Source: an uncultured archaeon
GTDB lineage: Archaea; Asgardarchaeota; Lokiarchaeia; Sigyniarchaeales; SOKP01
DNA: 64,000 nt
Reading direction: 5' to 3'
Assembly: GCA_964486045.1 (NCBI GenBank)
Contig: CAZALK010000008.1
Coordinates: forward strand, 1-64,000
Shown here: positions 6,001-9,000 of the stretch, piece by piece
Numbering within the stretch: position 1 is the stretch's first letter
Layout: every line of letters starts with the position of its first letter
The notes under the pieces: model-generated
Databases searched by the model: none
Told to the model about the DNA's origin: nothing
The model's input: the letters and a program-made list of their open reading frames with translations, nothing else
Translations under genes and position numbers: made by a program

Positions 6001-9000
6001 GATTTAAATTTGTTGTTTAAAGCAGGATTTATTGGCAAAGAATCGATCACTAACATATTACTTTCTGAAAGCGATTATGATATTAATCTAGAATTTTATA
6101 AACGAGAAAGTGGTCAGGACAATTATATCGGAACACTCCACTTAGAAGACTTAACTGACGTTTTTTCCCAATACGGCTTATATAATCTTACCATTGACCT
6201 AAAGAAAAGCGGTTTACACCTTAAAAGCCTATTCGAGTGTTTTGAAGGTGGAAAGGAATTAATTATCAACATCACCTCAAGTTTCAGTGGCATGCATCAA
6301 GGGAAAAGACTAAACGGTAAATTCACTTTAGAGATTCTTTATGCCGAGATTGACGCTGACTTAGTAAATGAATATCCAACCCTAGATATGGTAGAGTTAT
6401 ACCCAACAAACGATGGCACTCAATACATCAACATGTCTAGTGATTTTATGCACAATCCTTCTTATGCTGATATTGATGAGCTATACGGTTATAATTATGC
6501 TGATAACCGATTACAGTTTATAGATCCTTCTAAATACTATTCGGGTAATCTAAAGTACCTTTTTGATATTTCTGGTCAAAGAGGAAATCACGCGGGTGAC
6601 CTAACCAGCATTGATAGAAAAGATAATAACTACCTTGGCTTAACTTCAGAATCGGGTAGTGGAACAAGCCTAGATTACATTTTTAATGGACCGTATGTGC
6701 CTCGACAACCTGATAATTTTAGTCTTAGTCGTGGTTCTGCTGACTACAATGGTGATTTGAATCGATTAGATGGAAATTATTCTACATTTACCTCTAATAA
6801 GACCATTTCCGCCAACGTTCTAGACCCTCAAACAACTGGTCAGCCAGAATTTATAACTAGCTTAACTGGGTATTATTCAAGTTATCAAAATCTTGCCAAT
6901 TCTCATGAAGATGATTCAAACTATGCGACAATAAATAGTAAGTATATAGTGGGCGCGGGTATTTATATTGTAGACGTGAAAATAAACGATCCTTTAGGAA
7001 ATAGAGATTTCTTACTTAGTTCCCATATTGAACGATCAAATCCAGGAGATATAAAATTATATGTTGGGAGTCAGCTAATTGCACAAGGATCAACCATTGA
7101 TTTTGATGCTCGAGTCTATGAAAACGTTAATCAAATAAAAATCACTGCTGAGGATGCATCTAGTTCGTTCAGTGTAAGGGTTTATTTCTTTGAGTTTGGG
7201 GAGTTTACCGATTTCACAATTTTTGAGGGGAGTTCCGATCAAGGAGGCAACCCTGAATTTGACAATAATGATTGGACGACGCTTTCTAGTAACCTTATTG
7301 ACACCCAGACAGGTACAATGTATCCAGATACTGATGTTAATATTAATTGGGATGTTCCCGGATCAGAGACTCATTATGATGACGTTGATACCCAAGATAG
7401 TCTTTATATTAGAGAAGATGCATTTGCACTCGGAGAGTATACTGGACAAGTGGATCAGTTTGGATTTGATGAATTAGTCACCATACCAACTGGATCTACA
7501 GTCACTCAATTAAAAATACGGATAAGAAGTAAAAGAGATACCGATGCCACAGCGTGGTTAAAGGTCAAGTTTAAGGGAACTGGGGGATTTTACTCTGAAA
7601 AAGATGTAATCGAAGGGAATAACGCGTGGTATTGGGACGAAATTATATGGACAGGGCTTTCTATGGGTCAAGTTGACTTATATGACTTGGAAGTGGCGAT
7701 TACTTGCTATAATATGGGACCCCCATTTCAAGGTCCTGGTTATACATTTGTAGATATGATCTATGTTGAAGTCACGTATACAGTCCCAACAGACACCTAC
7801 TCTGAATTTACTTCAAAATTCACGATGGACCCCGCCGCTATCTATTCTGCTGATATTAATTTAGACTATGCCTATTTAATTACCCCTCTTGCTAATTTGG
7901 TCATGAAGTTTGATATCTATAATTTTGATAGCAAGACATGGGATACCATAAAGACAGGTAATTTTAGTGCAGCTGGTACTTATGATATGCTTTCCGCACA
8001 TTACAATGATCAATATGAGGTGTATGTAAGAATGGATGTCTATTCAACTATAGAGGTATTTGATGCCTTTGACATAGAGCTTGACCAACTTCGTATTTAT
8101 TTTGATAACACTACCGTGTTGTTTACCGCGGGAATTTATGTGGATAAAATATATAGTGATAGTGTTTTACACTATTCATACAAGTTAAATACCTCTCAAG
8201 CTCTTGATTTACAGATTTGGAACGAAATGTTTCAGGAATGGAGTACAATTTCCGAGTTAAATTTCGAATCATTCAGTAAACATAGTTTTGATTTACGTGG
8301 GGATTTACCCGAGATGTATTTTGACGAGTCCCAGACAATTCTCCTTAGATTTTTTGCTACTAATATAAATAGCCCGTTCAATGTACAGATAGATATGTTA
8401 AATGTGGAACAAATTTCCTTTTCCGCTAAGGACAAAACCGGAATTGAAGATTACTTTATTAGTATTGATTATTATTCGGATGATGCTAATTTCTATTTAC
8501 TTTACGGTGATGATTTAGGTTATCATTCTTTGGGAACGCTTCGCTCCACTTCAGATACCACATTTTCAGCCAATTTCCTTCCAATATTGCAAGACACACG
8601 CCTCACATTACGGATAATCCATAATGAGACTTCATTACCAGTATCGATATATCTAGATAGAATTATTATAAGCTCTAATTCAACAGAAGAGATAAACGAT
8701 ATAATTATTACCAGCGATACAACATACGACCTCTATTATACCAACCTTAAGTTTTTGAATGTACCTTCTCTTGTCAGCTCCCATACAACGAGTGCGACAT
8801 TAACATATGTAGAAATGAAAGGAGGTATCTATTACGTCTTTAAAATCTCTGAGATTGACACTACGAGGCAGTTTATTGTCAATCAGGTTAAATTTACAAG
8901 TCCTCTACATGCTGAAAATATTACTATTCTCCCACAAGACTATTATCATGTAGCAGACGACGAGATTTATATTGATTCTGCTGTTGCTACCAATCCATTA

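Follow-up and report, generated by a model that had tools for sequence, protein, structure and literature searches.

The giant open reading frame

The window analysed here, a 64,000-nt stretch of a Lokiarchaeial contig, begins with a giant open reading frame (ORF; window 1-28344, forward strand, frame +1) of at least 9,447 aa, which is open at the contig start and therefore 5'-truncated. The encoded protein is acidic (D+E 15%), carries 132 N-glycosylation sequons within its first 8,100 aa and continues, after hydrophobic helices near aa 8180-8810, into a paralogue-specific tip. Its closest named homologue comes from a Promethearchaeota (Lokiarchaeia, Asgard) archaeon. Full-length homologues are 11,600-14,600 aa long and have N-termini with several predicted transmembrane helices. 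A whole-protein homologue search returned none, and a search of genome and metagenome contigs for related loci likewise returned none. Because its relatives start with predicted transmembrane helices and its stalk is acidic and rich in sequons, the protein is likely to be extracellular and membrane-anchored.

The same genome (G000) holds a collinear paralogue on contig C7, C-terminal pieces on C4 and C23, and on C36 a piece of the N-terminus that includes transmembrane helices. The latter (G000:C36:1-4713, reverse strand) is a 1,571-aa ORF that runs off its contig, has four predicted transmembrane segments and shares 49% identity with the N-terminal region of the giant in G105; it is probably the missing start of either the window's gene or a paralogue. 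The ORFs of the window and of the C7 paralogue both begin at position 1 of their own contigs. Compared with C7, the window at 1-600, 1201-1600 and other stretches consists of patches that are 96-100% identical and others that are 50-80% identical, a pattern that suggests gene conversion, or else assembly collapse.

Parts of block 1

Within this ORF we examined a 710-residue stretch, block 1, whose segments all lie on the forward strand in frame +1. The whole block is inserted into a host unit (level 0), after its first part (6415..6546) and before its second part (8680..8805). In the homologue G010:C163 the two host parts are joined directly, with 5 residues between the matches as against ~720 in the window protein, and together they would form one domain. 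Iterating an HMM of the host unit pulled in the closer family by way of one marginal match, and this HMM was discarded; Atlas matches of the host unit all scored below 0.9.

The block starts with N1 (6547..6696), the opener of the outer split jelly roll, with a D-x-x-Y motif and an extra strand, SLDYIF, followed by N2 (6697..6816; half-motif 6709-6798), the opener of the middle split domain, with a full D-x-N-Y-x-T calcium-type motif. An unsplit beta-sandwich, A (6817..7203), comes next as one prong of a fork. The opener of the inner split domain, N3 (7204..7302; half-motif 7207-7293), has Asn at the ligand position where the paralogue has Asp, and leads into B (7303..7785), an intact galactose-binding-like/CBM jelly roll at the branch tip. 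Linkers of a few residues each connect N3 to B and B to C3. Three closers then follow one another: C3 (7786..8106) for the inner domain, with a D-x-L end strand (IELDQLRIY at 8074-8100), C2 (8107..8409) for the middle domain, ending in VQIDMLNVE at 8383-8409, and C1 (8410..8679) for the outer domain, ending in IYLDRIIIS at 8647-8673. A paralogous copy of B lies at aa 3964-4091 of the giant ORF, and some members of the B alignment match PF14741 (GH114_assoc).

An earlier note on this DNA had proposed half-motifs, complete domains and three closers at these places, and all of them were recovered there in frame +1 of one ORF. The nested reading was confirmed, with corrections, and the block parses as host[N1[N2[A, N3[B]C3]C2]C1]host. 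An out-and-back branch off the stalk is supported as the note had it; what it had not included is that A makes the branch a fork and that the block sits within a further host unit. The fork arises because N2/C2 encloses both A and N3[B]C3, side by side.

Profile evidence for openers and closers

Profile HMMs were rebuilt without the window's genome and its close orthologues and run on the 9,447-aa protein. These leave-out HMMs recovered N2 (28.1 bits), N3 (11.1 bits), C3 (30.6 bits) and C2 (47.3 bits), together with one further N/C pair, termed block 2, at 16.4 and 15.2 bits. Nothing in the remaining protein exceeded 2.2 bits, and the reversed protein gave at most 2.4 bits. N1 and C1, both far more diverged, were missed by the leave-out HMMs. 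When joined, however, the N1+C1 profiles aligned with the unsplit domain in HHalign (122 columns, probability 81%, E 1.2e-5), and in homologues N1 and C1 are present or absent as a pair. C1 lacks its first strand, which N1 supplies: N1 includes the strand with which C2 and C3 begin, so that the split of the outer domain falls one strand further on. The proposed insertion into the same loop stands for N2/C2 and N3/C3, while N1/C1 is split at the later position; N1 also deviates from the exact F-x-I/L-x-x-G spacing.

Pfam and NCBIfam scans of block 1 gave nothing significant, a DUF6544 match falling under its cut-off, and the jelly-roll module has no entry in either collection. The unsplit-domain profile had no significant match among PDB sequences; within the phylum it has matches in 33 of 400 genomes, and 30 of these belong to the 134 genomes of the same family. 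Against this profile A gave a collinear but weak match (E 0.011, probability 4%), and single-sequence HHalign of A was not significant. A is also the innermost cargo in other proteins, and it is probably a diverged member of the family of split and unsplit jelly rolls.

Structure prediction

In an AlphaFold2 (AF2) model of the window protein from N2 to C2 (pLDDT 80.5, pTM 0.56), A folds as a beta-sandwich and B as a CBM/IFT25-like jelly roll (Z ~10); for B, VIA-align gave Z ~9-10 to IFT25, CBM32, CBM36 and CBM6. Here N2 is joined to C3 (range 4-476, Z 12.4, rmsd 3.1), and N3 is disordered at pLDDT below 50. In the alignment used (A5), N3 was mostly covered in only 4 of 66 rows, having been starved of depth because inner openers were aligned onto A. 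Given this coverage, the N2-C3 pairing is likely an artefact of the model, although it still counts against the exact order. Two other alignments, A3 and A4, in which MAFFT had shifted or collapsed the repeats, were discarded.

A second model was made of P0001:678-1124, a 44%-identical orthologue that lacks A, from an alignment fixed by order alone in which both openers were well covered at equal depth. In this model (pLDDT 85.3, pTM 0.61) both openers are ordered, and the matches to solved CBMs fall into three concentric ranges: 1-445, which joins N2 to the last C half (CBM16 2zew, Z 10.4, 128 aligned residues, rmsd 3.2); 42-345, which joins N3 to the first C half (5eiy_B, Z 10.1, 114 aligned residues, rmsd 2.7); and 82-239 (IFT25, Z 9.0). 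The fold search against solved CBMs returned no low-rmsd crossed range. The concentric ranges bear out recursively nested jelly-roll domains. As for the reverse-order pairing that AlphaFold was expected to give, it is modelled in the orthologue lacking A only, the window's own model having joined N2 to C3.

Overall, the fold matches for the equivalents of B, N2+C2 and N3+C3 cover 110-136 residues at Z 8.5-10.5 and 2.7-4 Å, with structural identities of 5-15%, and on these models all three have a galactose-binding-domain-like (CBM) jelly-roll fold. In an Atlas structure search, whole-model TM scores were at most 0.4 throughout. For A and N1+C1, weak profile matches hint at a CBM-like fold; fold searches did not list A separately, a result compatible with such a fold. 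N1 and C1 were modelled as separate chains, outside the context of the block, and reached a complex score of 0.45 against 0.00 for the best control, a weak pass. The mark applied is reached by 58 of 80 solved pairs and by 2 of 110 mismatched pairs; among these passes, only 7 of the solved pairs but both mismatched ones scored 0.60 or less. Contact agreement between runs is at least 31%, and partner pLDDT is at least 30. Resemblance to solved CBMs may account for the pass.

Insertions, deletions and run lengths among homologues

The earlier note had predicted indel polymorphism of whole nested units, and this is what homologues display. The whole block is missing from G010:C163, as described above, and from G050:C41, where the host unit is absent too. 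P0001 lacks exactly A. G071:C35 reads N2-A-C2, with N3, B and C3 lost together, and G065:C51 has N-B-C alone. Contiguous N+C units without insert were found in 15 copies, and units of this kind occur in G014, G065, G010 and G035.

Across 204 collected proteins (relatives, so that the counts are not independent), the distance from an opener to the following closer is 0-10 aa in 15 cases and at least 129 aa in the other 80, and no intermediate distance occurs. The run of openers equals the following run of closers in length in 74 of 95 cases, compared with a mean of 43.6 and a maximum of 58 over 10,000 shuffles. Among multi-unit proteins, 26 of 43 are fully balanced; the 17 others mostly have closers in excess, a surplus likely explained by missed divergent openers.

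Nesting depth ranges from 1 to 7 levels across the family. P0043, P0048 and P0074 each have 3 openers and 3 closers, and in P0043 and P0048 the 3+3 nest holds other cargo, one or two LamG-like domains as judged by eye; cargo is therefore interchangeable. The deepest nest, P0018 (L084:368-7399, JGI 3300031566), has a signal peptide and reads 7N-A-7C, with near-identical 42-aa openers, closers of ~102 aa and a C-terminal transmembrane anchor; its gene adjoins one for an Rce1-like protease. In keeping with nesting, the outermost positions, first opener and last closer, are taken by the divergent copies, but the mirror between the inner repeats is inexact (last-in-first-out r 0.87, permutation p 0.046, a correlation due to the outer pair). 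The clustering of inner repeats differs between the arms, which suggests that openers and closers multiplied independently and reached equal numbers. In G063:C13 (L049, L070-L071) a 20,619-aa open frame with runs of the block-1-type closer domain was seen.

When the two paralogues, nearly identical elsewhere, are compared, block 1 is the first region of strong divergence, and its flanks are 87-100% identical between them. Inside the block, identity to the paralogue decreases towards the centre of the nest: 76% for N1 and 79% for C1, 75% and 63% for N2 and C2, 67% and 49% for N3 and C3, 47% for A and 50% for B. This gradient, also seen in two orthologues, matches N1 with C1, N2 with C2 and N3 with C3.

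A putative calcium site

Opener ligand positions are D/N in 97% of cases, N/D at i+2 in 67% and T/S at i+5 in 54%, and the last strand of the closer carries D/E in 93%. A has no terminal acid, and neither N1 nor B has Thr at i+5. A CBM32 calcium site uses D804, N806, T809 and E931 (PMC12926856), and the ligand positions of openers and closers have the same spacing and order. The split domains may therefore bind calcium through a structural site of the CBM32 type, in which Asp/Asn (and Thr) of the opener would be joined to Asp/Glu in the last strand of the closer. Since such a site would be assembled across the split, calcium would, if the site holds, clamp each level shut.

Block 2 and the variable tips

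Block 2 (window ~10450-11870, aa ~3485-3955) consists of an N/C pair at aa 3536-3566 and ~3736-3826 around a domain of ~170 aa, apparently within a further split domain. When this outer domain was spliced together, it gave no match to the B profile. The length of the site is about 390 versus 627 aa when G105:C47 is compared.

Beyond aa 8800 the identity between paralogues drops to 19-30%. Three paralogues (window 26400-28344; G000:C7 and C4; L091, L092) have unrelated tips after the conserved hydrophobic helices. Downstream of each lies an unannotated ORF, different in the three cases (162, 445 and 196 aa). The tips on C7 and C4 match HNH/homing endonuclease PHROGs (E 2e-4 and 1e-11); the window's own tip gave no significant match. 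Because tips vary in the family and two paralogues match endonuclease families, the whole giant protein may be a contact-dependent toxin.

Proposed working of the branch

Taken together, we read block 1 as a nested side branch that sits in the stalk of a giant surface protein, itself probably membrane-anchored, with a probability of roughly 0.85 for this reading; its split domains, nesting order, fold class and optional units were demonstrated computationally. In the mechanism we propose, the unit of the branch would be a CBM-like (galactose-binding-domain-like) jelly roll of ~135 residues, whose beta-hairpin after the first ~35 residues takes whole-domain inserts. The chain would run outward through N1, N2 (with A looped out) and N3, B would fold at the tip, and on the return C3, C2 and C1 would each complete the opener of their own level. 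The result would be an arm of three storeys that branches from the stalk and comes back to its point of departure, with a fork at the second storey and the intact heads A and B held away from the main axis. As each storey would begin and end on a single face, cargo could be added, swapped or removed with the stalk undisturbed.

A different chain path has some evidence of its own. The domains may be split without strict last-in-first-out pairing, N2 and N3 being interchangeable or strand-swapped, or N3 being degenerate, in which case one closer would take its strand from elsewhere or from another molecule. The N2-C3 contact of the window's own model points this way, N3 is the weakest opener (11 bits, with Asn at its ligand position), and the P0018 openers are 73-98% identical to each other, so that partners could be exchanged; moreover, archaeal cannulae use donor-strand complementation of calcium-bound jelly rolls between subunits (PMC12518558). 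We nevertheless hold such pairing to be unlikely: N3 was almost missing from the alignment behind that contact and a nested model emerged at equal depth, N3 is better conserved in the paralogue than C3, A and B, and N3, B and C3, tied by very short linkers, were lost together in G071. Simple tandem units are far less probable still. On that reading the closers would be complete beta-sandwiches of 90-100 residues and the openers independent calcium-binding linkers, which would fit the good prediction of closers alone (block pLDDT 77-97, including C2 without its opener) and their excess in some proteins. The 15 contiguous N+C copies, the equal run lengths and the co-deletion of matched halves speak against it, and the CBM matches require ~30 opener residues in addition to the closer. 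Contiguous tandem units, the outcome that the earlier note had named as contradicting nesting, are largely ruled out by the indels and the P0001 model.

If nesting is right, the role of the branch is a separate question. By analogy with RrgA and RTX adhesins, in which inserted domains are binding heads, we somewhat favour the view that the heads recognise glycans or proteins on other cells. The branch could instead be a spacer, shield or mechanical element with no ligand-binding role, such as glycosylated bulk or a Ca2+-dependent stiffener. The fold is common to non-lectins (IFT25, XRCC1, ephrin receptors, MAM), no sugar-binding residues were identified, and the branch is dispensable in G010 and G050. 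Against this, divergence peaks in the tip domains between well-conserved flanks, A, B and other domains replace one another as cargo, and the inserted domain is a binding head in both of the adhesin types named; a pure spacer thus seems possible, if rather doubtful. Returning to the nested side branch, it is probably a variable, glycan-recognising element of a giant adhesin with nuclease-like tips. A more speculative extension, which we put forward tentatively, would make the branch unit telescopic and calcium-clamped, its depth set by tandem duplications that act on openers and closers separately yet arrive at equal numbers, as with the 7 and 7 of P0018. In a giant Asgard nuclease toxin that acts by contact, the forked branch would then serve as an exchangeable cassette for target recognition.

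Asgard cell-surface proteins are almost without annotation, and matching openers to closers offers a parse rule for domain boundaries that HMM libraries miss. Constructs expected to fold would contain N and C together, never a closer by itself. One chain could form branched arms of tunable length, which raises the question of what keeps repeat numbers on two distant arms matched, and A and B are candidate specificity heads for contacts of Loki cells with partners or competitors.

Comparison with known systems

In the literature on nested or matryoshka domains, Asgard giants, Asgard polymorphic toxins and Loki surface proteins, which we covered incompletely, no account of the block-1 family turned up. 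The literature searched yielded no self-nesting CBM-type jelly roll, no putative metal site across a domain split, no nesting depth varying from 1 to 7 and no such nesting in giant Loki proteins. Giant Asgard proteins have been described as Otus/Ephialtes on aloposons (PMC8813620) and in a survey of large proteins (10.1101/2023.11.21.568195). They resemble the window's protein in being very large, from Asgard archaea and mostly without annotation; a nested architecture was not found in the parts covered, and the words 'nested' and 'discontinuous' each had 0 occurrences in the survey.

In fold, the block-1 domains resemble CBM32/F5-8, CBM16, CBM4, CBM22, CBM6/36 and IFT25, all galactose-binding-domain-like (Z 8.5-10.5, rmsd 2.7-4), but the solved CBM and IFT25 examples are contiguous whereas the block-1 domains are split, and none of these families gave a match at the sequence level. 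Membership of the CBM32/F5-8 type C family found no backing in Pfam, NCBIfam or PDB-sequence matches for the block-1 module.

The principle of nesting is known from solved structures, and our surprise is moderate for that reason: multi-level insertion is already established in RrgA, RTX split Ig-like domains and Si3, and out-and-back stalks in antigen I/II. In the A-P stalk of streptococcal antigen I/II, repeats before and after the head pair into a stalk (PMC3178794); that pairing is between alpha-helix and polyproline, whereas block 1 pairs complementary halves of globular domains. The Si3 insertion of cyanobacterial RNA polymerase builds an elongated arm from SBHM copies that do not simply follow one another in tandem, several of them discontinuous as the chain folds back (PMC10895346). 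Si3 is cytoplasmic, of a different fold and made of eight SBHM copies (PMC10895346), while block 1 would be an extracellular branch whose depth is varied by repeat expansion on both arms.

The closest parallels are adhesins. In the RTX adhesins FrhA and MpIBP, a short N-terminal and a long C-terminal beta-sandwich piece flank a ligand-binding domain (PMC10865825), so that cargo is projected off the axis of a giant adhesin (PMC10865825), as we propose here. The RTX split domain has one level, an Ig fold and bacterial type I secretion; block 1 is recursive, a jelly roll and archaeal. The giant ORF has no Ig-like/CnaB, RTX-repeat or sortase-signal Pfam match, and block 1 works like RTX adhesins and sortase pilins without being a member of either. 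In RrgA, the tip adhesin of the pneumococcal pilus, D3 is inserted in D2 and D2/D3 in D1, a nesting that likewise projects a binding head outward; RrgA has Ig/CnaB folds, isopeptide bonds and a fixed arrangement of two levels (PMC11231552, citing Izore 2010). Block 1, by contrast, is a CBM-like jelly roll inserted into its own copies, in three levels plus the host, and forked.
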